From Escherichia phage muut: a DNA stretch of 64,000 bases. A model generated the notes under the pieces. That model worked only from the letters and a program-made list of their open reading frames with translations. It was not told the DNA's origin and made no database searches. Each line of letters starts with the position of its first letter. Within the stretch, counting starts at the first letter, position 1. The position numbers were made by a program, and so were the translations under genes. This document shows positions 8,958 to 63,258 of the stretch, in pieces. The stretch is taken from sequence record NC_052657.1; one strand, written 5' to 3'.

Positions 8958-9388
8958 ATAAATTACTTCAGTGTTACCACAAAGTGACGAACTGCTTTTC
9001 GTGCAGCAGAAGCCAGAGGCTTAGCATACTTAAGTTCATCTTTTTCCATTATAAATTCTCTTTTAAATGAAAATGCAGGACTTATTGGCATTGCCTGCGC
9101 AAGCCCTCAAGGGGAACATAGGTTTTTGTATATTTAACGACCAGGATAACCATAAACCCGTCATCATTCACATTCAAGAGGTACACCATAAAACTGCCGG
9201 GGTCTTAAAACTATAATGATTCGCAAATCATTAATCAGACAGTTCGATGGCTCCTCGATTTTAGCTCACACTAAGGCAGTGAATCTCCAATAAACTAAAA
9301 AATCACTTAAAAAGAACCGCTAGAGTTTGAAGGAGAAAACCATGAGCGAAAAGAGAAATTTTCTCTAGCGATTCCATTTAAATAATCT

Positions 9389-9463
9389 TGGAGCGAGTAA
9401 CAGGACTTGAACCTGCACCTGGAGGGTGGAAACCTCATATGCTACCATTAACACTATACCCGC
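9389..9463 (-). tRNA. tRNA-Gly (anticodon UCC)
   Basis: 75 nt; anticodon loop TTTCCAC, T arm GCAGG-TTCAAGT-CCTGT, acceptor GCGGGTA/TACTCGC with one G-U, CCA. Confidence 0.6.
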
Positions 9464-9518
9464 TTAACAATATTACTCTAACATATTATTAGCCCCTTTG
9501 TCAAGAGGCTTTTAATAT

Positions 9519-9842
9519 TTATTTTAAAATAGTAGATGCACCACGTCTGTTTAGATATGCAACCGTAAAGCTCAAATCACCTATTTCTTCAGGTTCCCAC
9601 TGACCTTCTAAGCCATAACAAGAACAATGATATGCGTGTACTTCATAAAACAAAGATGTTTTCATATCATAGAAATAAACGTGAGATTCGCCTTCATAAT
9701 ATGCACAATCATAAGTGGCAGAAAGAATTACAATGTTATCCTTATCTAACTCTACTTCATAATATCTTTCAACATCTTCAATATCATCAAAACCATCGAA
9801 AACATTGATATTAAAATATTTCTCTAACTCTTTTTCTGTCAC
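9519..9842 (-). CDS. hypothetical protein (about 107 aa) embedded in tRNA array
   Basis: ORF between tRNA-Gly and tRNA-Thr; probable GTG start with AGGGGG RBS. Confidence 0.45.
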   Translation of the reverse strand: MTEKELEKYFNINVFDGFDDIEDVERYYEVELDKDNIVILSATYDCAYYEGESHVYFYDMKTSLFYEVHAYHCSCYGLEGQWEPEEIGDLSFTVAYLNRRGASTILK

Positions 9843-9865
9843 ATACACCCCCTTTAGAGTTAAAT

Positions 9866-9940
9866 TGGTGCTCCCACAAGGACTCGAACCTTGATAAGTT
9901 GCTTACAAGGCAACCGTAATAGCCGTTATACGATAGGAGC
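9866..9940 (-). tRNA. tRNA-Thr (anticodon UGU)
   Basis: 75 nt; anticodon arm GTTGC-CTTGTAA-GCAAC, T arm CAAGG-TTCGAGT-CCTTG, acceptor 7 bp with one G-U, CCA. Confidence 0.65.
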
Positions 9941-10019
9941 AAAATATTTGCTTGGTAGGATTTGATACCTACAATTCTAGAAAATTCTAGAGGTTTCTAT
10001 TAACTCTACAAGCACTATT

Positions 10020-10104
10020 TGGCGATGGATCAAGGATTTGAACCTTGCTAGAACTTTCGTTCACGGATTAACAGTCCGTCGCCCAACCACTAGGCCAATC
10101 CATC
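10020..10104 (-). tRNA. tRNA-Asn (anticodon GUU) with unusually long variable arm
   Basis: Exact acceptor GATGGAT/ATCCATC, CCA, discriminator G; anticodon arm ACGGA-CTGTTAA-TCCGT; 15-nt variable hairpin GAAC-GAAA-GTTC. Confidence 0.5.
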
Positions 10105-10111
10105 TTTAATT

Positions 10112-10198
10112 TGGTGCAGGTAGTTGGACTCGAACCAACGAAGCCCCGAAGGGCAGGAGATTTACAGTCTCCAGCAATTGCCGCTATGCGATACCTAC
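10112..10198 (-). tRNA. tRNA-Tyr (anticodon GUA)
   Basis: 87 nt type II; anticodon arm GGAGA-CTGTAAA-TCTCC, variable hairpin GCCC-TTCG-GGGC, T arm GTTGG-TTCGAGT-CCAAC, CCA. Confidence 0.7.
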
Positions 10199-10203
10199 GT
10201 GTT

Positions 10204-10278
10204 TGGTACATCGTGAAGGATTCGAACCTTCGACCTTGGAGTTAAAAGCCCTTGCTCTACCAACTAAGCTAACGATGT
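10204..10278 (-). tRNA. tRNA-Lys (anticodon UUU)
   Basis: 75 nt; exact acceptor ACATCGT/ACGATGT, D arm GCTT-AGTTGGTA-GAGC, loop CTTTTAA, T arm GAAGG-TTCGAAT-CCTTC; anticodon stem only 3 bp. Confidence 0.6.
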
Positions 10279-10406
10279 ATAAATTATCTTTAAAATAGCC
10301 AGTGTTTGCGGCACTGACTATGAGGTATCGGTAAAATGGCTGCCACCATCTGCCGAAAGTTTACTCTGCTAAAGTAAGTAGCCTCAACGCTACATTAAAG
10401 ATAACT

Positions 10407-10492
10407 TGGCGGTAGATGTAGGACTTGAACCTACACGCCGTTTCCGACGACAGTTTAGCAAACTGTTGTGGCTACCATTTCACCAATCTACC
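10407..10492 (-). tRNA. tRNA-Ser (anticodon GCU)
   Basis: 86 nt type II; exact acceptor GGTAGAT/ATCTACC, anticodon arm ACAGT-TTGCTAA-ACTGT, long variable arm, CCA. Confidence 0.7.
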
Positions 10493-10500
10493 GTTTTTAA

Positions 10501-10653
10501 TTATTCAAAACAACCGGAATCTTTTTGTTCTGCTTTTACCATACGAATATTTTTACCATCTTCAGATTGTTGAAGATTAGAATACTCATAAACAACTTTA
10601 TTATTTACAATCTTAACTCCGGTAACAACCTGTCCAATAGTTTTATAATTCAT
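10501..10653 (-). CDS. hypothetical protein (50 aa)
   Basis: Start moved to internal ATG (AGGAG RBS) because longer track ORF overlaps tRNA-Ser(UGA). Confidence 0.4.
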   Translation of the reverse strand: MNYKTIGQVVTGVKIVNNKVVYEYSNLQQSEDGKNIRMVKAEQKDSGCFE

Positions 10654-10671
10654 AAAGCTCCTAGTTGAATT

Positions 10672-10761
10672 TGGAGGAAGATAATGGAGTCGAACCATCA
10701 CCGTATCACTACAATGGGCCAGGGTTCAAACCTGGTTGCGCACCGCTGCGCCCTACCTTCC
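10672..10761 (-). tRNA. tRNA-Ser (anticodon UGA)
   Basis: 90 nt type II; acceptor GGAAGGT/ATCTTCC with one G-U, anticodon arm CCAGG-TTTGAAC-CCTGG, T arm GATGG-TTCGACT-CCATT, CCA. Confidence 0.65.
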
Positions 10762-10824
10762 CGTTATCATACTTTAAATCTAACATAAAACTATCTTGCT
10801 TGTCAAGCAGTTTTTAAAACTTTT

Positions 10825-10906
10825 TGGCCGGGGTGACAGGATTCGAACCTGCATACTCCAATTACTCGGTTAACGCCTGATTAGAAGTCAGGTGAGATAC
10901 ACCCCG
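10825..10906 (-). tRNA. tRNA-Arg-like (anticodon UCU), non-canonical arm order
   Basis: Exact acceptor CGGGGTG/CACCCCG, CCA, T arm GCAGG-TTCGAAT-CCTGT; UCU hairpin sits right after U8-A9 and a D-loop-like segment follows it. Confidence 0.4.
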
Positions 10907-10978
10907 TTTTCACAGTAACTATAACAAAAAACTAAGTAAATGTCAAGATATTTTTACTAAAAATATTATTTAAATTGA

Positions 10979-11084
10979 AGCCTAGTTATGGAATCGAACC
11001 ATATTTCGTATTTAGTTAGACAAAGCGGTCTAACATATTTTTCAGGCTTTGATGGCCTCGGAATTACCAAATACCCTACTAGGC
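10979..11084 (-). ncRNA. tRNA-like element, about 105 nt, with large insertion
   Basis: Exact acceptor GCCTAGT/ACTAGGC and T arm TATGG-TTCGATT-CCATA, no CCA; inner hairpins AGGC-CATCAAA-GCCT and GTTAGAC-CGCTTT-GTCTAAC. Confidence 0.3.
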
Positions 11085-11086
11085 GT

Positions 11087-11171
11087 TGGTGCAAGTGGAG
11101 GGATTCGAACCCTCAAGCATTTAAGCGTTGCGTTTTAAGCACAATGTGTATCACCAATTCCACCACACTTG
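11087..11171 (-). tRNA. tRNA-Leu (anticodon UAA)
   Basis: 85 nt type II; exact acceptor GCAAGTG/CACTTGC, anticodon arm TTGTG-CTTAAAA-CGCAA, T arm GAGGG-TTCGAAT-CCCTC, CCA. Confidence 0.65.
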
Positions 11172-11286
11172 CATATAGGAGATGCATAGCACCTCCTTTT
11201 AAATGGTGGTTCCCCAGGGTTACAATCCCTGCCCTCGACACTTATGAGGTGTGCGCTCTCGTCAGTGAGCTATGGAACCTTGAATA

Positions 11287-11553
11287 TTAAGCATACTGGG
11301 TCATTTCACCAGCTTCGCGTTTCTCCAGAAGAACTGCAATCAAAGCAATAGCTGCTTCTTCTTCGTGAGGAAGCCCCATTTCATCCAGAAGAGCAAGGAA
11401 GTCAATTACCAAACTTTCTGTTTTAAGGCTAACGCTACCATTTTCGTTTTCAGTAAGAACTGATTCAGGATCAAAAATAAAGATTGCTCCACCTTTATTA
11501 TCAATCAATACGTGCTTCTCAATCAATTCTTTGCCATAAGTCTTTTCTGTCAT
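11287..11553 (-). CDS. hypothetical protein (88 aa)
   Basis: ORF with AGGAG RBS; first gene downstream of minus-strand promoter. Confidence 0.5.
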   Translation of the reverse strand: MTEKTYGKELIEKHVLIDNKGGAIFIFDPESVLTENENGSVSLKTESLVIDFLALLDEMGLPHEEEAAIALIAVLLEKREAGEMTQYA

Positions 11554-11582
11554 AGTTTTCTCCTTTTGTTTAACTTGTGCTT

Positions 11583-11612
11583 ATCTTAGCAAATAACTAG
11601 CTATGTTGTCAA
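11583..11612 (-). promoter_or_regulatory. sigma70-like promoter (TTGACA-18-TAAGAT) reading toward tRNA array
   Basis: Perfect -35 TTGACA and -10 TAAGAT on minus strand about 30 nt upstream of the RBS of gene 11287-11553. Confidence 0.5.
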
Positions 11613-11718
11613 CTAGTTTTTACAATATTTTTTCTTGATCTGTAACCCAGTGTATAACCGCATACAAAAGATACAATAGCAATAAAAACAGATAAGCCAA
11701 AAATAATTTCTGTAGACA
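11608..11718 (-). CDS. small hydrophobic peptide (36 aa)
   Basis: ORF below track cutoff; AAGGAAA RBS; predicted single TM helix. Confidence 0.3.
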
Positions 11719-11732
11719 TACTGTTTCCTTAA

Positions 11733-11954
11733 TTATGTGAAATCTAATTCCTCCTCTGGTGCTGTGTAATTTAGAAGAAGATCAGTTACACTTTGATGTT
11801 GATAAACCCTTTCGGGACTGTCGTCGAATGCCAAACTTGTACAAATCGAGCATAGATCCGACTCTTGAATATTACCATTCCTGTCTCTACGGGAGTGATT
11901 AGTCAAGTGTCTGTTACAGGCTCGGCAACGAAAATAAAAATTATGTTGTTTCAT
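11733..11954 (-). CDS. small Cys-rich protein (73 aa), possible zinc-binding
   Basis: CxxC ... CxxC spacing (CRACN ... CSIC); AAGGA RBS. Confidence 0.45.
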   Translation of the reverse strand: MKQHNFYFRCRACNRHLTNHSRRDRNGNIQESDLCSICTSLAFDDSPERVYQHQSVTDLLLNYTAPEEELDFT

Positions 11955-12025
11955 AAATCCTTCGTGAAGCCCATCCAGGGCAGTTGCAGGCTCTCCTTAC
12001 CTTAATCTTATCACGAAGTTTTTAT

Positions 12026-13759
12026 TTAGTCAACCTGGATGGTTCCCATAGTACGAAGAACCTCTACATCAACACGGTTGCGGATATCAGTAAATGTTTC
12101 ATCACGTCCTTCTACTTGTGGTGTAATAACCGTACCATCTCTGAAGATAACTTGTAACTCATTGTCTTCATCTTGGATATCTTTAAAAGAAAGATTATCC
12201 ACAAGAGAAAGTTTACCATTTGTATCCTTAACAACCTTAATAAAACCTTTTGCAGAGCGTTTACCAGGATCAGTTTTAGGCTCCTTACTTACCAAAATTT
12301 CGTGTTCACCGATGATACTACCTGTTGCTTTAACAGCAAAACCAAAAGTATCTCGTGTATTGAACTGATAAGTATAACTACCAACACCAAATACAATATT
12401 GGAAGCTGCAAAACCTTTCTTCTTCAGTCGGCGTAAGATCTCGTGTTCTCGTTCAACAGTAATAGAATCACCATAAATCATACCGATGTGCTGATCAAGA
12501 ACCTTGTAGCCTTTTCGGTTGATAGTACCACCAAACACTTCCCAAAGGATTTGAATAGAACCTACTGCTTCACAATAAGGAATCTCATAAGTTTCATCAA
12601 TACAATCAGCAACACTGCAATCCTGAAGAACATTGTAATACTTATTAACATCAGCCAAATGAACTACTTCAGTGGCTGTAGCAATACCATTATTTAAAAG
12701 GTCTTCATAGTTATCAAAAGATTCAACATTGTATCCTGCAACAACTTTAACCGGATCTCCTGAGTCTGGACGAATAACAAGACGACCATTTCGTGACATA
12801 ATGGACTCTTTCAATTCTACCAGAATGCGAGTCAAGACAGCCCAGTAATCATAAGAATCTGCTACATATGAACAAAAACCTTCTGGAACAATTTCTTCAA
12901 TATAGCGGCGAAGAAACTCTTTCTCTGCTACATAACGAAGCCCATCAACATCATCTTTAAGATGTGGGAAATGTTTCTTCAGATCTTCAACAATAGCTCC
13001 AATGTTAGTCGTTGCTACTGAATGTTCTGTTGCCGGAATAGAACCTGCAACAAACTGATCATAATCAATACCATAATAATCATGCACAGTTTCAATAGCC
13101 AGAATATTATCTGTTCCTGTGAAAGATGCCAAATGAGCGATACCACTCTTATAACCATCTTCGACATTACTTAAACCACGTAGGCTAAAATCATGACACT
13201 GGAAGTTAACGTGATCAATATTATCACACGTTGCCATCGCATATGCCATAGCAATACGCTTATACTGAAAAGCTGCTGTAGCATTAGTCATTGTCTTCCA
13301 AGTTTCATCTGACAATAGTGTTTCCACATAATTAGTTAACCAAAAGAATTTTTCTAAAGTATTATGCACAGTAAACACAGGAACACCAATAGGACACAAA
13401 ACACCTTCTGGCAGAGATCGAACTTCCAGCGGAAGATAACCTAAATCGTGCAATTCTCCCCAACATTCAGCAGAAGGAGCAGAAGCACCTAATGCATTTT
13501 TAGACATACGATAAAATTTATTTACTGCTGCACTACGAGACATTTTAAAGAAGCTGTCCCACATAGTTACAAGGGCATCGGTGACTGCTCGACGAATACC
13601 TAAAACAATCACACCACGTGCTTCACGATCTGCATAGTGTGCAAAGTTTTTATCATTACGAGGAGTTAAATTAGAGAAAATGAGTTTTGTATTTTGGTTG
13701 TACATCTGCTTGTGACCAGGCTTATACCAATCAGTAGCAAAAGGTGCAAAAATATTCAT
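12026..13759 (-). CDS. nadV: nicotinamide phosphoribosyltransferase-family enzyme (NadV/Nampt-like; possibly Namat of NARP1)
   Basis: 577 aa; resembles NadV/Nampt by eye and co-operonic with a Prs-like gene; family membership inferred, not searched. Confidence 0.65.
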   Translation of the reverse strand: MNIFAPFATDWYKPGHKQMYNQNTKLIFSNLTPRNDKNFAHYADREARGVIVLGIRRAVTDALVTMWDSFFKMSRSAAVNKFYRMSKNALGASAPSAECWGELHDLGYLPLEVRSLPEGVLCPIGVPVFTVHNTLEKFFWLTNYVETLLSDETWKTMTNATAAFQYKRIAMAYAMATCDNIDHVNFQCHDFSLRGLSNVEDGYKSGIAHLASFTGTDNILAIETVHDYYGIDYDQFVAGSIPATEHSVATTNIGAIVEDLKKHFPHLKDDVDGLRYVAEKEFLRRYIEEIVPEGFCSYVADSYDYWAVLTRILVELKESIMSRNGRLVIRPDSGDPVKVVAGYNVESFDNYEDLLNNGIATATEVVHLADVNKYYNVLQDCSVADCIDETYEIPYCEAVGSIQILWEVFGGTINRKGYKVLDQHIGMIYGDSITVEREHEILRRLKKKGFAASNIVFGVGSYTYQFNTRDTFGFAVKATGSIIGEHEILVSKEPKTDPGKRSAKGFIKVVKDTNGKLSLVDNLSFKDIQDEDNELQVIFRDGTVITPQVEGRDETFTDIRNRVDVEVLRTMGTIQVD

Positions 13760-13830
13760 AGTTATGTCTCCTTGTTTGTTAATGTGGGAGTATCTTACTA
13801 GGCATACTCCCTATTATCAACACTTATTAT

Positions 13831-14724
13831 TTAAAAATTCCACACGTATGGAGATACAATTTGTTGTTGCAAATCTGACTGATTCTTAACAAGAACACCG
13901 GAATCTTCTTGGATGTTATCTTCCCACACATTAAGAGAATGAATGCAGTCAAAGTGCTCACTTAACTCTTTAAGACCTTTAGAAAAGATACCGTGTGTAA
14001 CATATAACTCAATCTTACCTGCGTTACGAGCACGTAGCACTTTAGCCAATTCAATAAAAGTTCTACCGCCGTCACAGATATCATCTACGATCATCAGGTT
14101 ACGCTTATTGAAATCCTGTACAGAAATGTCTGTACGAACAATAGCACCTGTCGCAGTATCTCTAACCTTCTCTGCACAGAACACATCTAAAGACATTTTC
14201 TTAGATAATTTAAATATTTTCTTAAGAGCACCACCATCAGGACTAACAAGAGCAAAATTCTCCATACGTAACTTCCACTTTAAAGTTTCGTAAGCAATCT
14301 CTTCTTGAGGTATTACACAGAGTCTGTCAAACACCGCTGGAGTAACATCACTATGTGGATCAGCAACGATAACACGTGAGAAATTTAATGAATTAATTAT
14401 AGAAGCAAATGCTTTAACTCCGAATGCTTCCCCAGGTTCACACACTCTGTCTTGTCGTGCATATGGCACATACAACATGAGCAAATCAACACAATATGGT
14501 TTATGATATAGCATATTGTCCAATGCATTCTTAGTCATAACCAAAGTCATCAAGTCTTTAGCAGATCTTACTTCTAAAGAGAGTAAGATTCTGTCTGTAG
14601 CATGATTGAAACCTGATAGATTCGTATCTAGTTGAACATGTTGTTCTCCACCAGAGAATGTAAAGACTTTAACGTCTACATCAGTAACATAACAGTTAAC
14701 ACCATGTAGAATACTAACTTTCAT
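13831..14724 (-). CDS. ribose-phosphate pyrophosphokinase-family enzyme (Prs-like; possibly Adps of NARP1)
   Basis: 297 aa; PRPP-binding loop MIVDDICDGGRTF typical of Prs / type I phosphoribosyltransferases; directly upstream of nadV-like gene. Confidence 0.6.
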   Translation of the reverse strand: MKVSILHGVNCYVTDVDVKVFTFSGGEQHVQLDTNLSGFNHATDRILLSLEVRSAKDLMTLVMTKNALDNMLYHKPYCVDLLMLYVPYARQDRVCEPGEAFGVKAFASIINSLNFSRVIVADPHSDVTPAVFDRLCVIPQEEIAYETLKWKLRMENFALVSPDGGALKKIFKLSKKMSLDVFCAEKVRDTATGAIVRTDISVQDFNKRNLMIVDDICDGGRTFIELAKVLRARNAGKIELYVTHGIFSKGLKELSEHFDCIHSLNVWEDNIQEDSGVLVKNQSDLQQQIVSPYVWNF

Positions 14725-14763: not shown

Positions 14764-14792
14764 ACTCTACATACAGATAGATCTAAAGTCAA
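14764..14792 (-). promoter_or_regulatory. sigma70-like promoter for prs-nadV operon
   Basis: On minus strand TTGACT-17-TAGAGT about 40 nt upstream of prs-like start. Confidence 0.45.
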
Positions 14793-14970
14793 TAGATATT
14801 TATTATTTAATTAATAATAAAATTAATAAAGAATCTATTGTTAGTATAGAGCATGTATGTTAGTATTATAAACATAACATAGTGCTATATGTAGACTACT
14901 CAGTTGTCTGTTAGATCATGTATCACAGGATTAGATAACACCCCCTCGCTGCGCTCGGCGTTTTTCGGGG

Positions 14971-14994
14971 GTTAGGGTAGCATACTTTTTTGCG
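14971..14994 (+). promoter_or_regulatory. conserved upstream element TTAGGGTAGCAT-N2-TTTTTT-N-CG (copy 1)
   Basis: Near-identical 24-nt motif recurs in opposite orientation at 55907-55930; both precede the first gene of an operon. Confidence 0.35.
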
Positions 14995-15133
14995 TTTGTC
15001 AACACCTTTTTAGATTATTTTTAAGTACAACCTAAACCTCCTAAAAACGATTGTAACGAGTTTTACTGTGAGGTAAGGTGATTGCATATCTTAAAGGCCA
15101 TTAGCTCGTTACAGAGCCGTATAGGAGGGAATA

Positions 15134-52064: not shown

Positions 52065-52286
52065 CTATAGATCTCGTTCATATAATTCAATTATCAATTC
52101 ATCCTCTGCTGTTATCGTACCAATTTGCCAAGTATGAAGATAAACCTCTGTATAAGAGTGTATCTTACTATCTAACAAGCACAACCACGTATTGTTGCTT
52201 ACCTTTTCTTGAATATGAACCTTAACCACGAAAGGGTGAGGGTTATCTACTAAGAAACCAATACTACCTTCTACAACTACAGACAT
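52065..52286 (-). CDS. hypothetical protein (73 aa)
   Basis: Track ORF. Confidence 0.4.
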   Translation of the reverse strand: MSVVVEGSIGFLVDNPHPFVVKVHIQEKVSNNTWLCLLDSKIHSYTEVYLHTWQIGTITAEDELIIELYERDL

Positions 52287-52324
52287 AATACCTCCTATTG
52301 TTTATGCTAAGACAAATAAAAACA

Positions 52325-52353
52325 CACATACAAGAAAACCCGCCGAAGCGGGT
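52325..52353 (-). terminator. rho-independent terminator
   Basis: On minus strand ACCCGC-ttcg-GCGGGT followed by TTTCTTG, just downstream of gene 52361-52684. Confidence 0.55.
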
Positions 52354-52360
52354 TTATGTG

Positions 52361-52684
52361 TTATACAATGTGTTTTGTTTTAACGTGCGAAGATTTAAAA
52401 ATCTTATTATGTAATGAAATACAACTATCACGGAACACATAGTAGTTAACAACATCTGGTTTATCAACACAGAGTGTAGCCACAACTTTCATAGGTATAG
52501 ATACATTCTCACGAAGAGTAACACTACCTTTCAAACGTTCAGATGAAATGTGAATCAAACCTTCTTTTTCATCAATGATAACTTCTTTAACATTTTTGAA
52601 ATTATAACAAGAGTTGTCAACATAAGATACCCTTGCTTTTGTTTGCTTCTGTTTAGGACGAGAACCAGTGTTTATTTTTTGCAT
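52361..52684 (-). CDS. hypothetical protein (107 aa)
   Basis: Track ORF. Confidence 0.45.
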   Translation of the reverse strand: MQKINTGSRPKQKQTKARVSYVDNSCYNFKNVKEVIIDEKEGLIHISSERLKGSVTLRENVSIPMKVVATLCVDKPDVVNYYVFRDSCISLHNKIFKSSHVKTKHIV

Positions 52685-52692
52685 AGTTTTCC

Positions 52693-52980
52693 TTATTTGC
52701 TTTCACGAGCAAAATAATAATTTTCATATTCATTACGTGTAACGATTTCTGGATGATCAGGTTCACCGTAACTAAGTTTAATTTCAGGATACACTTTGGT
52801 GTTGAATAGACACGTAACACCTCTCATATAATATCCTGTAGGACTTAAAACAACATCATCTTCACTTACACTTGAGAATTTTATTTCACCATTAGTATCT
52901 TTGACGACAATAAGAGCATGTTCAGGCCAATCAAGATTCTCTTCTTTCAGTTTTTCATAAACTTCTTGCACTAGTTCCAT
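52693..52980 (-). CDS. hypothetical protein (95 aa)
   Basis: Track ORF with GGAGG RBS. Confidence 0.45.
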   Translation of the reverse strand: MELVQEVYEKLKEENLDWPEHALIVVKDTNGEIKFSSVSEDDVVLSPTGYYMRGVTCLFNTKVYPEIKLSYGEPDHPEIVTRNEYENYYFARESK

Positions 52981-52989
52981 ATTGCCTCC

Positions 52990-53163
52990 TCAGATTACAA
53001 ATTTTTCTTCTTCTGGTTTCTCGTAGTTGGGAGAATAAACGTGGGATGGATTAAAACCTTTAAAGCTACCTCGCCCTTTTCGTGGACAATTGAATGTTTT
53101 AGCTTTGTGATCACCAAAAGATTTACCACAATGTACACATTTATAATTGGTATCTTTGAACAT
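52990..53163 (-). CDS. small zinc-ribbon protein (about 57 aa)
   Basis: Alternative frame to track ORF 52995-53192; AGGAGAG RBS; CVHCGK...CPRKG. Confidence 0.4.
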   Translation of the reverse strand: MFKDTNYKCVHCGKSFGDHKAKTFNCPRKGRGSFKGFNPSHVYSPNYEKPEEEKFVI

Positions 53164-53214
53164 TTTACTCTCCTTTGAAAGATAGGCTGCACAGCAGTAC
53201 AGCCTTTTAAAAAA

Positions 53215-53319
53215 TTAGTGTTTAAATTTTTCGATTACTTCGTCAACTTTAGCGATGATAACATCTTGGTACTTGTGACCAAAATAACCAACAACAACAC
53301 CAACAATAAACGTCATCAT
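53215..53319 (-). CDS. small protein (34 aa)
   Basis: Sub-cutoff ORF with AAGGAG RBS. Confidence 0.3.
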   Translation of the reverse strand: MMTFIVGVVVGYFGHKYQDVIIAKVDEVIEKFKH

Positions 53320-53919
53320 TTACTTCTCCTTTTTAACTATAATGGCTTCTTCATTCAGAGTAAACAGCAAGGAAGATGTATCACCAACACACCTTGCACC
53401 TGGAATGAGTTCTAAAATTTTAGAGGATATAGCAATAGTATCTTCATCCAGTACATATTCTCCAGGTAACAATCTTAATGTTATTGGAAAATCTACGGAT
53501 GCCAAACCAGAGAACATCCCATCATTAAGAAGAACAACTTCTAAACCGTTACCTTCTTGTTGAGCATTATGCACTTTTTCCGGTAAGAAGTCAATACATT
53601 GATTTAAAATTTCCACATTTAATTCTACACCAGTACGAGCTTTATAAACTCTAGCCAAATCTATGATCCGAGGATCAATACTGGCGTAAGGGGATTCTAG
53701 GTGTTTTGGATCAATAGGAGCAACGCGCAATTTACCATCGAGAGATATCCACGTTACAATCCACATTTCACCAATCCCAGGTTGATCTCGCGCAGTAAGG
53801 AATTCTACTAATGCTCCAGGATTAGGCATTATGTAATCTTGTGTGATCAACATGTTCTTTACTCGCAAAAGCATTCCTGGCTTTAGTAAGCCCTTCTCAC
53901 CACTCCAATATTCTTTCAT
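53320..53919 (-). CDS. hypothetical protein (about 199 aa)
   Basis: Start reset to internal ATG 53919 preceded by AGGAG. Confidence 0.45.
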   Translation of the reverse strand: MKEYWSGEKGLLKPGMLLRVKNMLITQDYIMPNPGALVEFLTARDQPGIGEMWIVTWISLDGKLRVAPIDPKHLESPYASIDPRIIDLARVYKARTGVELNVEILNQCIDFLPEKVHNAQQEGNGLEVVLLNDGMFSGLASVDFPITLRLLPGEYVLDEDTIAISSKILELIPGARCVGDTSSLLFTLNEEAIIVKKEK

Positions 53920-53932
53920 TTTTACTCCTGCT

Positions 53933-54205
53933 TTAATGTCGTAGTTCACTAAACTTACAAACAAAGTGAACGTTAAGAAAAGTTAGTTTTCGATCTGGTG
54001 TAAACTCTGTTACTGTTTTATACACCTGTGCAATACCGAACCTGTTGACAGCAGGTACTGACAATTGGCTTATACATTTCATAGCTGACAGTTTTGCCTC
54101 TTCTTCAGATGCAAAATAAGTAAACATACCTTCTTCGTCAACTATAATTTCTTGTGTAACACAATCTACAAAACAAAAGAAAACATTAGGTAATTTTTCC
54201 GACAT
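53933..54205 (-). CDS. hypothetical protein (90 aa)
   Basis: Track ORF. Confidence 0.4.
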   Translation of the reverse strand: MSEKLPNVFFCFVDCVTQEIIVDEEGMFTYFASEEEAKLSAMKCISQLSVPAVNRFGIAQVYKTVTEFTPDRKLTFLNVHFVCKFSELRH

Positions 54206-54206
54206 A

Positions 54207-54419
54207 TTAGTTGTTCCTGTACTTAGAGAACAAAGTATTGACTAACCAGTCAGCAAACAGTAATCCGAGTGTACCAATACCGTAACCGATAAGCATAATG
54301 TAAGGCACTGCCTTATTTTCATTACCTGTCATTACTTCAGGAAAAATCAAAAACACAATACCGTTACCAACGATAATCCAGAACATAAGAAACACAAACA
54401 TACGAAGCAACATTGTCAT
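54207..54419 (-). CDS. small membrane protein (70 aa)
   Basis: Two predicted TM helices. Confidence 0.4.
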   Translation of the reverse strand: MTMLLRMFVFLMFWIIVGNGIVFLIFPEVMTGNENKAVPYIMLIGYGIGTLGLLFADWLVNTLFSKYRNN

Positions 54420-54420
54420 A

Positions 54421-54603
54421 TTATTCTTCCTCCTTCACTTCTTCAACTTTACGAAGCATACGTTTATCAAATGTAGCTTTCTGTAGTTGTTCATTAACAT
54501 CAAACCACACCACTTCGCAAGTATCGTAGGTAGATACCATTACAGTCATTAACATTTCTTCACTAGCAAGACGTACAATATCACCTGTTTTAATATTTAC
54601 CAT
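54421..54603 (-). CDS. hypothetical protein (60 aa)
   Basis: Track ORF. Confidence 0.35.
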   Translation of the reverse strand: MVNIKTGDIVRLASEEMLMTVMVSTYDTCEVVWFDVNEQLQKATFDKRMLRKVEEVKEEE

Positions 54604-55007
54604 AACTCCTCCAGAAGTTTACCAAGTTTAGTTTTAAATTCATTATCCCACGCTATACGAACTATGTCAAGATCACCTTGTGCATTACGTTTTGTATCTA
54701 AGTAGTAACCACCATGCTCATAGCGGTGTTTTATATGCTCGATCAGACGTTCTTTACCACTCTTGGATAAATAGTCATCAAATTCCCCATTGAAAAGGTC
54801 TAAGATTGTTTGTCTATTATCTCCTAATTGAGTGATTCTAAAACTAATCAAAGATCCCTGTAAACCTATATCTGTTTGTTTAAGAGAAAACCCATGACCA
54901 AAGCCGCCTGTAACTATAACAAGCGGTTTTCCTGTGATAGAGCTTTTAATAACATCTTGCTTAGGTTCTGCCAAAGATGTTAGAAACTCTTTTAACCATT
55001 TGAACAT
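54597..55007 (-). CDS. hypothetical protein (136 aa)
   Basis: Track ORF with AGGAGAG RBS. Confidence 0.45.
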   Translation of the reverse strand: MFKWLKEFLTSLAEPKQDVIKSSITGKPLVIVTGGFGHGFSLKQTDIGLQGSLISFRITQLGDNRQTILDLFNGEFDDYLSKSGKERLIEHIKHRYEHGGYYLDTKRNAQGDLDIVRIAWDNEFKTKLGKLLEELW

Positions 55008-55112
55008 AAACTCTCCTGTGTGGCGTGGCTTTGCCTAAGCGCCGAAGGCGCGGATCAAATATAAGCTGAATTTATTACGCCCAGGTAGCCAGGGCGCATA
55101 AATATCAGAAAT

Positions 55113-55361
55113 TTACCATCGAATAACTATTCGAGTAAAGTTTTCATCGTAATGAGATGTTTCTGTATCAATAAAAGTTGAAAAACCTTCAGCATCCAAG
55201 CTAACTTTTACGAAAGTTGGATAGAGCGTGTATATAGCAGCTTCTCTGTCTCCATCTTTAGCTGCTCTTTCAATATACGCGTAGACGTTTTGTAAACTCT
55301 CTTTTGCTTTGTTAAGTTCTGCGTTTTCTGCCAGTTCTCTCATTTTATCTGCTACAGTCAT
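55113..55361 (-). CDS. hypothetical protein (82 aa)
   Basis: Track ORF. Confidence 0.4.
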   Translation of the reverse strand: MTVADKMRELAENAELNKAKESLQNVYAYIERAAKDGDREAAIYTLYPTFVKVSLDAEGFSTFIDTETSHYDENFTRIVIRW

Positions 55362-55630
55362 TTGTCAGTATCCTTTTCAATAAATCCTGTGGTTTTACAA
55401 GGCACACATTCATACATTTGTCCAACATCTGCAACTACCCAACCCATTCCACTGCAATAAGGGCAGATTGTTTTGTTCTCTTTAGCATACACAGCCAGAA
55501 GTCTTTCTTCTAGCTTATTGTAATCAGCAAGAAGAACATAATCCCCTTCTGGATCTGGTACAATATCACATTGACCAGCAGCACCTTGGCTGTACACCTC
55601 TAAGTCATATCGTGTAACCATTATTCCCAC
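55358..55630 (-). CDS. hypothetical Cys-containing protein (90 aa), paralog of 60765-60989
   Basis: Shares CDIV-DP-G-Y...DY..L block with ORF 60765-60989. Confidence 0.45.
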   Translation of the reverse strand: MGIMVTRYDLEVYSQGAAGQCDIVPDPEGDYVLLADYNKLEERLLAVYAKENKTICPYCSGMGWVVADVGQMYECVPCKTTGFIEKDTDK

Positions 55631-55839
55631 TCCGCAATCAGTTTTGGATTTTCTGCACGAGAATAGAATGTTGTAATGTCACCGTAAGTGTACTCTTGTT
55701 CCGACAGTTTTACAAGAGAGATCATTTCACGATCTGGAGTACCGGAGATCCAATCGAACACAGCAACACCCCGAGGTGTTACATAGAAACCAGATGTATT
55801 ACCCGTAAACTTATCTTTTGCTTTATATAATTTGTACAC
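55621..55839 (-). CDS. hypothetical protein (72 aa)
   Basis: GTG start with GAGGAG RBS; first gene after conserved upstream element. Confidence 0.4.
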   Translation of the reverse strand: MYKLYKAKDKFTGNTSGFYVTPRGVAVFDWISGTPDREMISLVKLSEQEYTYGDITTFYSRAENPKLIAEWE

Positions 55840-55906
55840 TTTCTACTCCTCATAGATAAAATCTATTAAAAACCTGCTATCAATCGGTACAAACAGTTTT
55901 ACTTTT

Positions 55907-55930
55907 CGTAAAAAACATGCTACCCTAATC
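55907..55930 (-). promoter_or_regulatory. conserved upstream element TTAGGGTAGCAT-N2-TTTTTT-N-CG (copy 2)
   Basis: Reverse-complement match to motif at 14971-14994, with further downstream similarity. Confidence 0.35.
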
Positions 55931-56046
55931 TTATATACCGAGCGATAGCGAGGTAGAGAATATTCCATGTTATACATGGAAAGAGTATATGTAATGTTAC
56001 TAACTCTATAACTAACTATATACTCTTTATACCTTACTTACTACTC

Positions 56047-56310
56047 TTATTGAAGTTCAAAGATATCCCCATCTCCATCATATCCATACTCTAACTCTCC
56101 TGTATCATATAATACAATAAAGTCTGTATCATCTTCAATAAAAGATTTAGCATAATCTACTAACTCTTCATTATCTTCATACCCTTCCAGGTACTCAATA
56201 CGACCATTGATACATTTAGCTGCAACAACTCCTGGGCCATTGCTTGGAGTCCACTCACTGTATACTCGCATACCTAATTCTTTAATCATTGTTTGTCTCC
56301 TCATAATCAA
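56047..56310 (-). CDS. hypothetical protein (87 aa)
   Basis: Track ORF. Confidence 0.4.
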   Translation of the reverse strand: MIMRRQTMIKELGMRVYSEWTPSNGPGVVAAKCINGRIEYLEGYEDNEELVDYAKSFIEDDTDFIVLYDTGELEYGYDGDGDIFELQ

Positions 56311-56506
56311 TGTAGTTGTAACACTTATTCTTTAAGAAATCTTCTGCTTGTTTCTTGTGTTTTAGAATGATGCACTTCTCTTTATTCTGTTCTACATCAT
56401 TATGTAGATTGTATAAGTTAGATGCACCATACAGAATACCAATTAACAAAAGCAAAAAGATTGCTGTTGATAACAAAAATTGTTGCAACTTGTTTACAGA
56501 CTTCAT
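56282..56506 (-). CDS. small membrane protein (74 aa), paralog of 61294-61503
   Basis: N-terminal TM helix; shared C-terminal block KE-C-I-LKH...AE-FL...C..Y..Y. Confidence 0.45.
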   Translation of the reverse strand: MKSVNKLQQFLLSTAIFLLLLIGILYGASNLYNLHNDVEQNKEKCIILKHKKQAEDFLKNKCYNYIDYEETNND

Positions 56507-56556
56507 AAACCCTCCTTATCGTTAGTACACATTGATACTAACAAGAAGTTAAGATC

Positions 56557-56733
56557 GTGTCAACATCTTTGTGTTAATTTTATCCACTGTTCACATTCTT
56601 CTTTTGTGTCGTACTCTACAGGCTTCCCTGTATCATTTCCACAACCATCTCCGAACGTAGCCCACCAGGAGAATAGAAAACAAGTTTCTCTTACTCTCCA
56701 CTTATTGGCATAGGGTACAACATAATAACTCAT
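56557..56733 (-). CDS. hypothetical protein (58 aa)
   Basis: Sub-cutoff ORF with AAGGA RBS; start overlaps upstream stop. Confidence 0.35.
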
Positions 56734-56981
56734 AAGATTGTGATCCTTAGCTCATTTTCTAAGGTATGTCTCACACACTCTTTGAAATTGTTATCAATAT
56801 ACACCACACGTACTCCATGAGGTGTGTCTTTACATTCAAACACATTATATACAGTATCAGATAAGACATGTTGTACGTTTACTTGTCCAATGCCATTTTT
56901 AACCACAACCATTACTTTCAGTAAACTTGTATGGTTTTTAACTTCATCTTCTACATATGCTACAACATCTTTGATATTCAT
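56730..56981 (-). CDS. hypothetical protein (83 aa)
   Basis: Track ORF. Confidence 0.4.
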   Translation of the reverse strand: MNIKDVVAYVEDEVKNHTSLLKVMVVVKNGIGQVNVQHVLSDTVYNVFECKDTPHGVRVVYIDNNFKECVRHTLENELRITIL

Positions 56982-57277
56982 GGTTTCTCCTGTTTAAGTA
57001 CGATATAAGATTGACGAGATTTCCATCGCCCTATCTTAACAAGGCAAATAATGCCTCTCTTTAACAGATATTTCATATCTTCGTCATAAGCTGTTTGCAA
57101 TTGCCACTTACTGTTAACAGGAAGAGAACCATGTACCCTTAAATGAGCTAACAGATACTTTCTTCGCTCCTTCCCATAAGGCAGATATTGCCATTCTTTC
57201 TTTGATACAGGTTCATGTACTTTACGATGCCAGTAAGTAAGGTGTCTTCTTTTATGTAAACCCCTATTCCTTACCAT
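56978..57277 (-). CDS. hypothetical basic protein (99 aa)
   Basis: Track ORF; Arg/Lys/His-rich. Confidence 0.4.
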   Translation of the reverse strand: MVRNRGLHKRRHLTYWHRKVHEPVSKKEWQYLPYGKERRKYLLAHLRVHGSLPVNSKWQLQTAYDEDMKYLLKRGIICLVKIGRWKSRQSYIVLKQEKP

Positions 57278-57516
57278 TATACCTCTACCTCCGTTACCCC
57301 AGGATCTCTAGTCCAGGTATAGTAGAGCATACCATCTTCTTTCAGTGCAATGCGATCACTTTCGTCTCGAAGATATAGGTCACATACTACGCGCAGTTGC
57401 GGATCTGATCCGAGTAGTTCTGAAACAATAAGGTCATCACCGCTCATACGAGCAACAATCACTGCATATTGACCAGTATCTGCATCAAAAATTGGTTGTC
57501 CGATGTTTAATTGCAT
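57277..57516 (-). CDS. hypothetical protein (79 aa)
   Basis: Track ORF. Confidence 0.4.
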   Translation of the reverse strand: MQLNIGQPIFDADTGQYAVIVARMSGDDLIVSELLGSDPQLRVVCDLYLRDESDRIALKEDGMLYYTWTRDPGVTEVEV

Positions 57517-57701
57517 TGTGTTGTCTCCTTATTCAGTACGTTGTTTTGTGCTGCGCACCAGCACTCATAAAAACCTTGGGTTAATGGCATAGTGTAGTTT
57601 CCAGAAGGATCTCTTTCGAGATCCCCATCTGCATAACAACCACTACCTAAGAACCATTTTTCAAAATCGGATAAATCATCCCAATCTACACTATTTTTCA
57701 T
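57507..57701 (-). CDS. hypothetical protein (about 64 aa)
   Basis: Start reset to internal ATG to remove 86-nt overlap with upstream gene. Confidence 0.35.
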   Translation of the reverse strand: MKNSVDWDDLSDFEKWFLGSGCYADGDLERDPSGNYTMPLTQGFYECWCAAQNNVLNKETTQCN

Positions 57702-57702
57702 A

Positions 57703-58161
57703 TTATACTGTCTTATACCCGACAATAGCAACCTGATTCGTAGGCTTCCAACGACCAATAATCTCACCAGAAATCTCTGTGCTACCATTTATGTATTGGT
57801 AATGGGTATCATCATGATTAACCCACGCCATAACGTCAAGAGTAGGGGTTTTGACGTGTACCAGTAGTGTAGCCCATTCTGGGGCTTCTTTAATATCCAC
57901 AGAATCTTGCCAATCTTCTTCGATGTGCCAAGTAGGTTCACCATCAACATCTGTAACGAAGAAACGAGCTTTCATACGTTTAAAGAACATTGGTGTATAC
58001 CCATGATCGCACTCTGGGATAAAATCATCCATCGTCTCGTCATAGGTGAAATATTGTCCATCTTTGTAATGAAAAGATGCACAAAATAGTTCATTACGAG
58101 CAGGAACATGCCATACAGCTACAAAACTACGACCATGTGGATAATGTTTAACCTCTTTCAT
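57703..58161 (-). CDS. hypothetical protein (152 aa)
   Basis: Track ORF. Confidence 0.45.
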   Translation of the reverse strand: MKEVKHYPHGRSFVAVWHVPARNELFCASFHYKDGQYFTYDETMDDFIPECDHGYTPMFFKRMKARFFVTDVDGEPTWHIEEDWQDSVDIKEAPEWATLLVHVKTPTLDVMAWVNHDDTHYQYINGSTEISGEIIGRWKPTNQVAIVGYKTV

Positions 58162-58176
58162 AGTTTTCTCCTTATT

Positions 58177-58521
58177 TTATTCAAAAGAATCAATTCGATT
58201 TTGTTCTATGTCAATTGCAGCATCTAAGATAAGTTTTAATGCTTCGAATTGCAAGTCTTCCTCTAAAGAGAAGACATATAAAACAACAGATTCCAAGTAA
58301 GACAGCACCCCAAGACTAAGAGTTGCAATTTCTACTCCTGCATCGGAGAAGCCTGTTTGCAAAATTTCTTTGAAGAAACGTTGTTTATCAACAATAGCAG
58401 ATAAAATAAGCGTTTTACGCTCGTCTGCTGATCGTACTGTGCAGTATATGTTGCTAAAAGAATCTAACCACATTTTGATCATACCTTGTCGGTACATAAG
58501 GATTTCAATATCAGCCAACAT
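58177..58521 (-). CDS. hypothetical protein (about 114 aa)
   Basis: Start reset to internal ATG 58521 preceded by AGGAGA. Confidence 0.4.
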   Translation of the reverse strand: MLADIEILMYRQGMIKMWLDSFSNIYCTVRSADERKTLILSAIVDKQRFFKEILQTGFSDAGVEIATLSLGVLSYLESVVLYVFSLEEDLQFEALKLILDAAIDIEQNRIDSFE

Positions 58522-58522
58522 A

Positions 58523-58711
58523 TTATTTCTCCTCTGGAGAAAGGTTTGCATTAACTTGATAGTAAAAATCAAAATCCTTGTGTTGATCGCACCATTCTTG
58601 AGCTTCTTTAAATGACGCAAATTGCATAGTGAATGTTGCCATCCACGTGTTCATACTTTTATTGAACTTGTCGATAAAAAATGTTTGCATTATTCCTCCC
58701 ATTTTATCCAA
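58523..58711 (-). CDS. hypothetical protein (62 aa)
   Basis: Track ORF. Confidence 0.4.
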   Translation of the reverse strand: MDKMGGIMQTFFIDKFNKSMNTWMATFTMQFASFKEAQEWCDQHKDFDFYYQVNANLSPEEK

Positions 58712-58908
58712 AGGCAGTATTCTGGAACATAAACCTCCTTCCCTTTGTTATTTACAAAGGTGTACTCCACAAATTCTGCTTTATATGTTTTGTTATATTC
58801 CTGTGCTGCTGGCACAGGACATTTTGTAATGCGCGTTTCAGTCCAACGGCGGTGTATAACCGCCTTGTTCTTTGGATCAAACGGATGTATAAAGTGTGTT
58901 TTACTCAT
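58690..58908 (-). CDS. hypothetical protein (about 72 aa)
   Basis: Track ORF, start trimmed to internal ATG. Confidence 0.35.
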   Translation of the reverse strand: MSKTHFIHPFDPKNKAVIHRRWTETRITKCPVPAAQEYNKTYKAEFVEYTFVNNKGKEVYVPEYCLWIKWEE

Positions 58909-59305
58909 GCGCCATTTCCACAAGATTTTTAATCATAGTTTCTCGACAGAGATTCCACATATCTGAAGCAACCATAGAAGCATATTCATCGGGGTTGGAT
59001 TCTGGTAAAACCTCTTTAACTGCTTCTGGCGTTGGGCTGCACATAGCAGGTAGTGCTTTAAGTGCATCTTCAATAGAGAGCTTCTTACCTTCACTGTAAA
59101 TAACTTCGTAAGCATAGTCATTTACATCTTCTGGAATATCTTGATCCAGGTAACGCACAGTCGAGTTATGCATTTTGTTCATAGCTTCACTAACACCAGC
59201 GCCACAAAGCTGTGCAACTTCTTTAGAGATACAGTCACAAATAACAACTTCGTAAGGCTTTCCACCATAATACTGCGCATTATATTTGATTTTAACAGAC
59301 CACAT
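58901..59305 (-). CDS. hypothetical protein (134 aa)
   Basis: Track ORF. Confidence 0.45.
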   Translation of the reverse strand: MWSVKIKYNAQYYGGKPYEVVICDCISKEVAQLCGAGVSEAMNKMHNSTVRYLDQDIPEDVNDYAYEVIYSEGKKLSIEDALKALPAMCSPTPEAVKEVLPESNPDEYASMVASDMWNLCRETMIKNLVEMAHE

Positions 59306-59315
59306 ATTACTCTCC

Positions 59316-60002
59316 TTATTTAACGTGTTTTAGCAATTCAATGTTAGCAGAATAATTTTCACCACAATTGGTAACGCTCAACAGTGACCATTTACAAGAG
59401 AATACACCTTTTAGATGATCTGGAACACACATTAGCGGAACATAAACTGTTTCTGAATCTTGTGTTTGCTCTGTTTTGTTAACATTGCAACAAAATGGCA
59501 ATACATCATCATGAATCATTTTACATTCACTCAAATTATCTAACATATGTGAAACTTGTTCTGAAGTTTCAAACATTTGTGCTTCACAAGCCAGCGCACC
59601 AACCACTTGATAAGCCTCTCCACACAAATCTTCTAGCTCTAAGATACGTTCAGACATAGCTTCAATGATGGCTGATCGTGCTTTCACCTTAGTTTCTGCT
59701 TCTTTAATTTTCTTCTCAAGTTCTGCAATGTACTTCAGTAGTGCACTAACAACATCTGGAGTATTTTCTTGATCATCTTGGGAAATTTTTACCAAAGAAG
59801 AAGCTGCTTTGCAGCGCACTTTAGGCTCTACGTAGCCAAAAGTCATATTTTCCGAAGAAGATTGTTGTGAAAACCAGTGTTTGTTCGAAGAAAACACAGG
59901 TTCATCTTCAAACCAGAACACATCTCCAGTGATATCACGAGCCATGAAATTTGCATTGTCTGGAACTTCGTAACGATGCCCTTCAAACATAATCTCTTTC
60001 AT
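59316..60002 (-). CDS. hypothetical protein (228 aa)
   Basis: Track ORF. Confidence 0.45.
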   Translation of the reverse strand: MKEIMFEGHRYEVPDNANFMARDITGDVFWFEDEPVFSSNKHWFSQQSSSENMTFGYVEPKVRCKAASSLVKISQDDQENTPDVVSALLKYIAELEKKIKEAETKVKARSAIIEAMSERILELEDLCGEAYQVVGALACEAQMFETSEQVSHMLDNLSECKMIHDDVLPFCCNVNKTEQTQDSETVYVPLMCVPDHLKGVFSCKWSLLSVTNCGENYSANIELLKHVK

Positions 60003-60586: not shown

Positions 60587-60589
60587 AAC

Positions 60590-60763
60590 CTCTCCTTAAT
60601 TGTGAAAAATGTTATCAATCAATATGACTAATAATACAAGGATAGAAGGGAGTAGGAACAGAAATCTTAACATTATGTGATGCGTGTGAGAAGCGGCTTT
60701 AGCGCCAGCCGCCAATAAGCCTACTAATCCTACAATAAAGAGCAGTTGTTCAGGGACACCCAT
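60590..60763 (-). CDS. small membrane protein (57 aa)
   Basis: Sub-cutoff ORF filling gap; weak RBS. Confidence 0.25.
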
Positions 60764-60764
60764 A

Positions 60765-60989: not shown

Positions 60990-61035
60990 AAACCCTCCTA
61001 TTTATATATCAAGAAACACAAAAGAATAACATCTA

Positions 61036-61284: not shown

Positions 61285-61293
61285 ACTTCCCTC

Positions 61294-61864: not shown

Positions 61865-61873
61865 GACTTCTCC

Positions 61874-62382: not shown

Positions 62383-62385
62383 ATA

Positions 62386-62838: not shown

Positions 62839-62859
62839 TACACAACTCCTTATTGTTCA

Positions 62860-63257: not shown

Positions 63258-63258
63258 G

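Follow-up and report, generated by a model that had tools for sequence, protein, structure and literature searches.

What does a short motif signify when it recurs, on opposite strands, in two intergenic regions of one phage chromosome, and in which direction does it act? The question is raised by a 64,000 nt stretch of the Escherichia phage muut genome (NC_052657.1; hereafter 'the window'), in which exact copies of the 12-mer TTAGGGTAGCAT are found at 14972-14983 on the plus strand (site 1, S1) and 55917-55928 on the minus strand (site 2, S2). An earlier note, made from the sequence alone, took these for a regulatory site shared by two operons and not explained by sigma-70-like promoters. We consider it probable, at roughly 0.6, that the motif is a wrong-strand reading of the -10 region of a conserved, sigma-70-type, TG-extended promoter with a hairpin in its 5' leader, present in three copies per genome, one of them antisense to its surroundings. 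The earlier interpretation is thereby partly supported, in that the site appears to be a shared regulatory one, but in the form of a sigma-70-type promoter that faces away from the operons named.

A repeated 12-mer is not in itself significant, as the ~4e9 position pairs in 64 kb, each matching with a probability of 4^-12, would by our own arithmetic produce a few hundred such pairs by chance; the expectation of 0.01 obtained from pattern searching applies to a pattern picked post hoc. Both sites do exist, displaced by 1-2 nt from where they were originally placed, and the full 23 nt pattern as first written is found exactly at S1 and with three mismatches at S2, because the T-run there is displaced by one position. 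The similarity between the copies spans ~70 nt, comprising CCTCGCT-N-CGCTCGG upstream of the 12-mer and a T-run followed by GT(C/A)AA downstream; the downstream similarity that had been claimed is therefore present, and corresponds to the -35 box of a promoter on the opposite strand. Searching the whole genome of the closest relative, VEcB (OZ035773.1), revealed a third copy (S3) outside the window, at VEcB 73610, flanked by homologues of phi92 gp208 and gp209. Relaxed searches of VEcB for the core and upstream element found no copy beyond these three, and a covariance-model search concurred. The idea of a conserved intergenic module with further copies is borne out both by S3 and by copies in other genera, where the module is kept despite diverged flanks.

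The anatomy of the module is evident on the complementary strand, which reads TTGAC(A/T) or TTTACT, then 14-15 nt, then TGC-TACCCT-AA. In VEcB all three copies comprise a -35 hexamer, N14 and TGC-TACCCT: S1 is TTGACA-N14-TGC-TACCCT-AACCCCCGAAAAACG-CCGAGCGCAGCGAGG, S2 is TTTACT-N14-TGC-TACCCT-AATCTTATATA-CCGAGCGATAGCGAGG and S3, whose hexamer is shared with most other family members, is TTGACT-N14-TGC-TACCCT-AAACCTGAAAGGTGA-CGAGCGAAGCGAG. The -35 and -10 elements are separated by a spacer of 17-18 nt, T-rich and then A-rich, and the T-run of the original motif is the A-tract of this spacer. The -10 element conforms to TAnnnT (A-11, T-7) and reads TACCCT in every copy; TG lies directly 5' of it, at -15/-14, in all family members (as TGC, or as TGG in the S2 copy of the Phapecoctavirus Ro121c4YLVW), and a purine follows 7-8 nt after it in those inspected. 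Because TACCCT matches TATAAT at only 3/6 positions, a consensus scan overlooked this promoter, and the contention that sigma-70-like promoters do not explain the sites fails on the TG-extended TGC-TACCCT and the near-consensus -35 box 17-18 nt away.

Within the window, the S1 module, from -35 box through leader hairpin, occupies 14939-15010 on the minus strand (65 bits with covariance model R1). Its -35 box, TTGACA, lies at 14997-15002, 17 nt upstream of TACCCT, and its extended -10, the complement of the GGGTAGCA core of the original motif, at 14974-14982; this element is conserved in the alignment, and was required by the search patterns. The S2 module is found at 55890-55958 on the plus strand (68 bits with R1), antisense to the surrounding minus-strand genes, with TGC-TACCCT at 55918-55926 and the -35 box TTTACT at 55898-55903. 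This hexamer is kept in most S2-type copies elsewhere (metagenomic contigs L153, L170, L171, L175, L176 and L182), TTGACT being found in those of Ro121c4YLVW and L018/L177. Sigma-70 spacing rules predict transcription starts at a G 8 nt after the -10 of S1 (14966, minus strand) and an A 7 nt after that of S2 (55933, plus strand). Family spacers (alignment A3, columns 14-28) usually contain a short T-run/A-run inverted repeat, such as TTTTTC-A-GAAAAA, TTTC-GCT-GAAA or ACTT...AAGT, that may serve as an operator of dyad symmetry or induce curvature; the S1 spacer of the window does not have one.

Starting 11-15 nt after the -10, at around +5 to +25 of the predicted RNA, is a hairpin, H1, of the form (C)CGAGC-GNA/GNNA-GCGAG(G), which is present in the predicted minimum-energy folds. 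At S1 it is CCGAGC-GCA-GCGAGG, with tandem G.A mismatches and a GNA loop (14944-14958, minus strand; minimum-energy fold), and at S2 CCGAGC-GATA-GCGAGG (55938-55953, plus strand; fold and covariation). The inner pairs (C-G, G-C and C-G) are invariant around the two tandem G.A mismatches, the loops vary in both length and sequence (GAA, GCA, GATA, GAAA, GTAA and GGGA) though they invariably begin with G and end with A, and the outer closing pair covaries, being C-G in 16 sequences and A-U in nine. Across the alignment 89.5% of cells are paired, a figure that drops to 28-49% on sliding the partner columns. The leaders of S2, S3 and the copy in Klebsiella phage KP13-26 are more structured than shuffled sequence (z from -3.5 to -4.7), the 110 nt S2 leader folding at -27.1 kcal/mol (z = -3.5). 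This leader includes a second hairpin, H2 (TTCCATG-TTATA-CATGGAA, 55963-55981), which is followed by TATTCTCT on the minus strand and is terminator-like for the gp023 transcript, and a long third hairpin, H3 (AAAGAGTATAT...ATATACTCTTT, 55980-56028), which ends 19 nt before the gp023 stop codon. In other lineages the H2 stem undergoes compensating changes, from TTCCATG/CATGGAA to TTTCATG/CATGAAA, with a variable loop, and stems equivalent to H3 but of different sequence are found in L171 and L182. Rfam, searched across nine module-bearing loci, reported no family at the gathering threshold except tRNAs.

The relatives of the window identified by megablast are phi92-like phages (Justusliebigvirus, Stephanstirmvirinae), represented by many records at 97-99.9% identity. 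More distant BLAST matches to S1 fell in intergenic DNA of KP13-26 and of Phapecoctavirus genomes, and pattern scans in which only TGCTACCCTAA and the GAGCG-N-AGCGAG element were fixed found 11 viral, five genomic and 41 metagenomic loci. The -35 box, which formed no part of these patterns, nevertheless occurs at 17-18 nt in 11/13 distinct matches from the viral and genomic scans, and in nearly all metagenomic matches from phi92-like (Stephanstirmvirinae-type) contigs. When a leave-out covariance model, R2, was built from 17 sequences, none from Justusliebigvirus, it recovered in the window only 14939-15010 on the minus strand (59 bits) and 55891-55958 on the plus strand (56 bits), the next best score being 12 bits. 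Copies gathered by relaxed cross-genus searches vary at single positions only, as in TGGTACCCT in Ro121c4YLVW, TACCCTAG and TACCCTAC.

Not all matches belong to the family. The L162 group and L174 were judged unrelated or chance matches, as possibly was L017, which has no -35 box; a relaxed TTGAC-N28-52-CGAGCG-N-AGCGAG pattern had more than 120 matches in viral contigs, mostly unrelated, among which only L084 and L102 looked related. Three further contigs of Chloroflexi type (L144 4873-4908, L149 2303-2338 and L184 2392-2427) were set aside, their matches being a repeat, CATTCCGAGCGAAGCGAGGAATC, preceded by TGCTACCCTAA. These read TGCTACCCTAAC and then CCTGTCATTCCGAGCG(A/C)AGCGAGGAATC, in which the tandem-G.A/GNA hairpin recurs on a stem lengthened by ATTCC...GGAAT; they have no -35 box, and are probably an unrelated repeat family sharing the hairpin core.

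Justusliebigvirus and Phapecoctavirus (Ro121c4YLVW) each have exactly three copies per genome, at matching positions, and all three types occur in at least one further metagenomic lineage (L155, L182 and L188, from a single sample). The module is directed toward a transcription unit at S1 and S3. S1 lies in a 409 nt divergent gap between homologues of gp107, encoding phosphoribosyl pyrophosphate (PRPP) synthetase, and gp106A, because the gene blocks switch from the minus to the plus strand around 14724/15134. Its promoter strand fires toward the PRPP-synthetase and tRNA side, co-directionally in both genera; the first gene downstream is the gp107 homologue (ribose-phosphate pyrophosphokinase, 13831-14724, minus strand), and in Ro121c4YLVW the corresponding copy, in the divergent gap between gp265 (minus) and gp264 (plus), fires toward gp265/gp266 and the tRNA cluster. 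Crude open reading frame (ORF) calls likewise placed the metagenomic S1-type copies in divergent gaps, and showed the promoter strand to be co-directional with downstream genes at most of them and in the integrase islands described below. A tblastn search with PRPP synthetase was uninformative, as the gene is too widespread. At S3 the promoter strand is co-directional with the downstream genes in phi92 (gp208), KP13-26 and Ro121c4YLVW (the gp093/gp092 gap, co-directional with both), and the ORF calls found eight S3-type loci co-directional with their neighbours. The first gene after S3-type promoters (L006 2899-3105, which is phi92 gp208; L007, L012, L152, L155 and others) encodes a small hydrophobic protein of ~68-90 amino acids, MDVMTIRF...IIFLIIL..., preceded by a highly structured leader of 85-110 nt, a layout that recalls, by analogy, small membrane-toxin loci.

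S2 is antisense to nearby genes in every lineage examined. It lies in a 207 nt gap between the homologues of gp023 and gp024, within a block of small early-type genes, and stands back-to-back with the gp024 homologue (55621-55839, minus strand), whose start codon and the S2 -35 box are 59 nt apart and whose direction is opposite to that of the promoter. The S2 transcript would be antisense to the 3' end of the gp023 homologue (56047-56310, minus strand). Similarly, the S2-type copy of Ro121c4YLVW, which reads TGGTACCCT, is in the gp184/gp183 gap on the opposite strand to both genes, gp184 being the gp024 homologue; L153, L171, L175, L176 and L182 have equivalents with a ...LIAEW C-terminus. 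By crude ORF calls, an opposite-strand gene ends 75-140 nt downstream of the module at 8/8 S2-type loci. Given this tight synteny, the S2 copy may have a role in control of the gp024 operon through divergent or convergent transcription. The stretch between S2 and gp024 (55840-55897, minus strand) and its equivalents in the same five contigs contain a conserved TCCGATT(A/G)AT ... GATTGATAG ... CCGATTAGGAGG, with a small TAG-loop-CTA hairpin immediately before the gp024 ribosome-binding site.

If the favoured explanation is correct, Escherichia coli RNA polymerase carrying a sigma factor of the sigma-70 family would initiate at the module, generating RNAs that begin with H1. Minus-strand transcription from S1 would start a ~240 nt leader, pass a second promoter and continue into gp107, gp108 and the tRNA cluster. 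S2 would fire on the plus strand against the early-gene block, yielding a ~100 nt RNA, highly structured, that runs on into gp023 in antisense, and this might act as a small or antisense RNA or mark a convergent-transcription boundary. Those bases that depart from consensus yet do not vary (CCC within TACCCT and the following AA), together with the hairpin, may constitute the recognition site of a trans-acting factor, of phage or host origin, through which the three units would be regulated jointly, whether by activation, by repression or, for example, by an antiterminator or stabiliser binding the leader RNA; an integrative island, discussed below, would have copied the module so as to respond to the same signal. 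Initiation at the predicted starts, the temporal class of the transcripts and the role of the S2 RNA are inferred.

Several points weigh against this explanation. Much of the family was gathered with a pattern fixing TGCTACCCTAA and the hairpin stem, so their invariance is partly an effect of ascertainment. The inner pairs of H1 never vary, so the covariation rests on the outer pairs, and the stems would form equally well in sense-strand RNA or in single-stranded DNA; being strand-symmetric, the S2 hairpins do not indicate which strand uses them. There is no gene co-directional with S2 for more than 8 kb, such that as a conventional promoter it could produce only non-coding or antisense RNA. 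TACCCT has only half of the consensus positions, which makes activity of the module with sigma-70 alone uncertain, and no candidate trans factor emerged. The literature on Phapecoctavirus and phi92 yielded neither mapped 5' ends nor RNA-seq for a phi92-like phage. Nor was a paper describing the module found, a text search for GCTACCCTAA giving only unrelated eukaryotic and miscellaneous papers; a preprint on Hok toxins that cites phi92 does so for host range only, and is irrelevant here.

A simpler alternative, possible though on balance unlikely, is that the module is a strong early sigma-70 promoter of the usual kind, joined to a stem-loop that stabilises the 5' end, and that it was duplicated and spread by recombination. 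No trans factor would then be dedicated to it, nor would the non-consensus bases have any special role. The phage has many consensus sigma-70 promoters with 5' hairpins. For instance, VEcB 81985-89770 (plus strand; L004), outside the window, contains ~17 near-consensus promoters of the form TTGACA-N16-17-TAAGAT/TAATAT/TATAAT, each with a conserved GC-rich 5' hairpin of GGCGGGAAATGGTTTCCCGCC type, different from H1, within ~10 nt, and is probably the immediate-early promoter array. Relatives of rV5 are likewise reported to use many host-type promoters, 11/33 having extended -10 regions, and nothing beyond generic sigma-70 promoters and one late motif was described for rV5 (PMC3606486). Among known systems, the module resembles the E. 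coli extended -10 (TGn) promoters used by phage early genes in its TTGACA-like -35, 17-18 nt spacer, TG at -15/-14, TAnnnT and purine start ~7 nt downstream. However, the -10 elements of the early array vary freely (TAAGAT, TAATAT, TATAAT and others), whereas TGCTACCCTAA and the CGAGC...GCGAG stem are nearly unchanged between the three paralogues, among several genera and in a mobile element that is unrelated, even as spacers and flanks diverge, and from this we infer an additional recognition constraint. In contrast to ordinary extended -10 promoters, which drift at these positions, TACCCT, the C at -13 and the AA at -6/-5 are nearly invariant, and a leader hairpin of fixed form accompanies the promoter. 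The conserved antisense placement of S2 also sits poorly with a generic cassette. As a lead only, sigma-S-preferred promoters typically have C at both -13 and -8.

A more elaborate proposal, which we hold only tentatively, is that the promoter and hairpin together are the cis target of a regulator specific to the phi92-like lineage, possibly a protein that recognises the unusual -10/discriminator along with the 5' GNA/GNRA hairpin and works, for example, as a processive antiterminator, RNA stabiliser or switch, co-ordinating three units, among them a conserved antisense or small RNA opposite the early genes, and that a restriction-modification island at tRNA-Leu with a P4-type primase has copied the module such that its replication operon is turned on upon phage infection. 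Three of the pattern matches, counting L183 and L016 as one, are island copies in non-phage DNA: L141 5335-5369 (minus strand), in a 505 kb contig of a Scandinavium metagenome-assembled genome; L183 895-930 (plus); L016 4733-4768 (plus); and L142 7342-7375 (minus). As at S1 and S3, the island copies are directed toward a transcription unit. A tyrosine integrase gene stands just ahead of the module, and co-directional with it, in L141, L016 and L183, and ~800-900 nt beyond the module are an endonuclease VII-like gene and one encoding DUF5906 (PHROG 'DNA primase'), with L183 continuing through a helix-turn-helix regulator, a resolvase and an Eco29kI restriction-modification pair to tRNA-Leu. The island leader has in common with phage S2 a second hairpin of S2 type and the AGAGTATGT that follows it. 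The island looks like a P4-type satellite or a defence island carrying a phage module, and a functional link between island and phage is speculation; tblastn of the island proteins against two phage genomes found no shared regulator, matching only a cytosine methylase (L016 and L183) and one ORF of 225 amino acids.

Two known systems bear comparison. The P4 promoters Psid and PLL mimic the late promoters of P2 and are responsive to Ogr/Delta. The likeness here is that an integrase island with a P4-type primase-like gene (DUF5906) bears the promoter and leader of a phage group; the differences are that these phages are virulent phi92-like myoviruses, and that the common element is a -10/leader module rather than an upstream activator site. 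The lambdoid nut sites (boxA and boxB, recognised with N) and the HK022 put RNAs, which lie close to promoters and render RNA polymerase resistant to terminators, are also few per genome and place a small hairpin with a GNRA-like loop in the first ~25 nt of long transcripts, a resemblance that is, by analogy, a possible way of working. The module is not a nut site, since it is without boxA: neither CGCTCTTA nor CGCTCTT(T)A was found in the aligned leaders, CGCTCGG occurring on the opposite strand only. Moreover, the nut boxB has a 5 bp perfect stem and a GNRA-like pentaloop, unlike the module stem with its two G.A mismatches and loop of 3-4 nt, and one copy of the module has no operon to antiterminate; no N-like protein was identified, although no search was directed at one.

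Rather less probable is that the module acts in replication, as a promoter-primed origin or DNA-level element, with transcription from TACCCT, or extrusion of the C-GNA-G mini-hairpin in single-stranded DNA, priming or marking replication. The T4 oriF and oriG and the T7 primary origin, which have an A/T-rich unwinding element downstream of the promoter, similarly depend on a dedicated, few-copy promoter class; single-strand initiation signals are a further parallel. Here there are only three copies per genome, at fixed positions, one without a gene to express. The leaders repeatedly contain GNA-type loops with a closing C-G pair, and hairpins of the d(GCGAAGC) type are exceptionally stable as DNA; the island module lies upstream of a primase-like gene. 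In the window, S1 is followed, within the ~400 nt non-coding divergent gap, by a 35 nt pure A/T run at 14796-14830, 135-170 nt downstream of the predicted start, and by GATC boxes, an arrangement also seen in Ro121c4YLVW and L013; boxes of this kind (AGATCTAAC-like) recur in S1-type leaders. This run, reached ~170 nt into the leader, may have a DNA-unwinding role, but is best read, from its position, as the UP element of a second sigma-70-like promoter detected by the consensus scan (TTGACT-17-TAGAGT, 14764-14792, minus strand, 40 nt before the gp107 start), because it abuts the -35 of that promoter at 14792 in a layout repeated in Ro121c4YLVW and L013. S2 and S3 have no A/T-rich unwinding region, no linked iterons or initiator gene were found, and the GC skew across the window tracks gene direction.

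The reading originally put forward, that of a phage-specific promoter or activator acting on the strand as first written and driving the operons that begin with gp106A (15134, plus strand) and gp024 (55839, minus strand), TAGCAT perhaps being the -10 element and CTCGCT-N-CGCTCGG a factor-binding site upstream of it, now appears very unlikely. The motif was correctly said to lie 60-150 nt upstream of the first gene of each operon, the distances being 140 nt to the ATG of gp106A and 67 nt to the GTG of gp024; in addition, S2 is syntenic with a gp024 homologue in all lineages checked, and no convincing sigma-70 promoter was found in the gap between the S2 module and the gp024 start. However, the promoter points away from both operons, and in the orientation of the original motif S3 is antisense to every neighbour, as are the corresponding copies in KP13-26, Ro121c4YLVW and eight metagenomic lineages. 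That strand is without any -35-like element, the distance from CGCTCGG to TAGCAT varies between 15 and 19 nt, and the perfectly placed TTGACT on the other strand is left unexplained. A functionless chance repeat, of the sort expected for 12-mers in 64 kb, has a negligible probability and is refuted by the ~70 nt of similarity, the third genomic copy, the cross-genus and metagenomic copies in at least three lineages and leave-out scores of 56-59 against a background of 12 bits.

Other candidates were rejected outright. A terminator on the originally reported strand is not indicated, as the T-run after GCAT has no common stable hairpin, S1 alone having a 5 bp stem before a different T-run; the terminator-like site flagged on the gene strand of the S2 gap is H2, outside the motif. 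The 12-mer matches with two mismatches in tRNA genes are D-arm look-alikes, and neither ARAGORN nor Rfam identified an RNA gene at the sites. A resemblance to a hammerhead core (CUGAnGA...GAAA) did not withstand inspection of the alignments by eye, A6 and A14 not being conserved. The late promoter of rV5/T4 type (TggTAaAAtA / TATAAATA) occurs on neither strand of the module.

The genes of the window form a minus-strand block at 1-14724, a plus-strand block at 15134-51889 and a second minus-strand block at 52065-64000. Fifteen tRNA genes are clustered at 8242-11279 on the minus strand, downstream of gp107 and gp108, which S1 would drive. In the phi92 record a 'hypothetical tRNA' is annotated within the gp108 coding region.

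Were the module just a host-type promoter with a stabilising stem-loop, it would be ordinary, and still useful for annotation. The transcriptional control of phi92/rV5-like phages, widely used as candidates for therapy, is essentially uncharacterised, and a three-copy promoter and leader class, invariant across genera, provides concrete sites at which their transcription can be studied. A further expectation is that a conserved RNA, small or antisense, is made at an early-gene boundary. The copy in integrative islands hints that virulent coliphages may interact with satellite or defence islands in the chromosome, and if the regulator and island proposal is true, these islands would represent a satellite of, or an infection sensor for, a group of virulent myoviruses.

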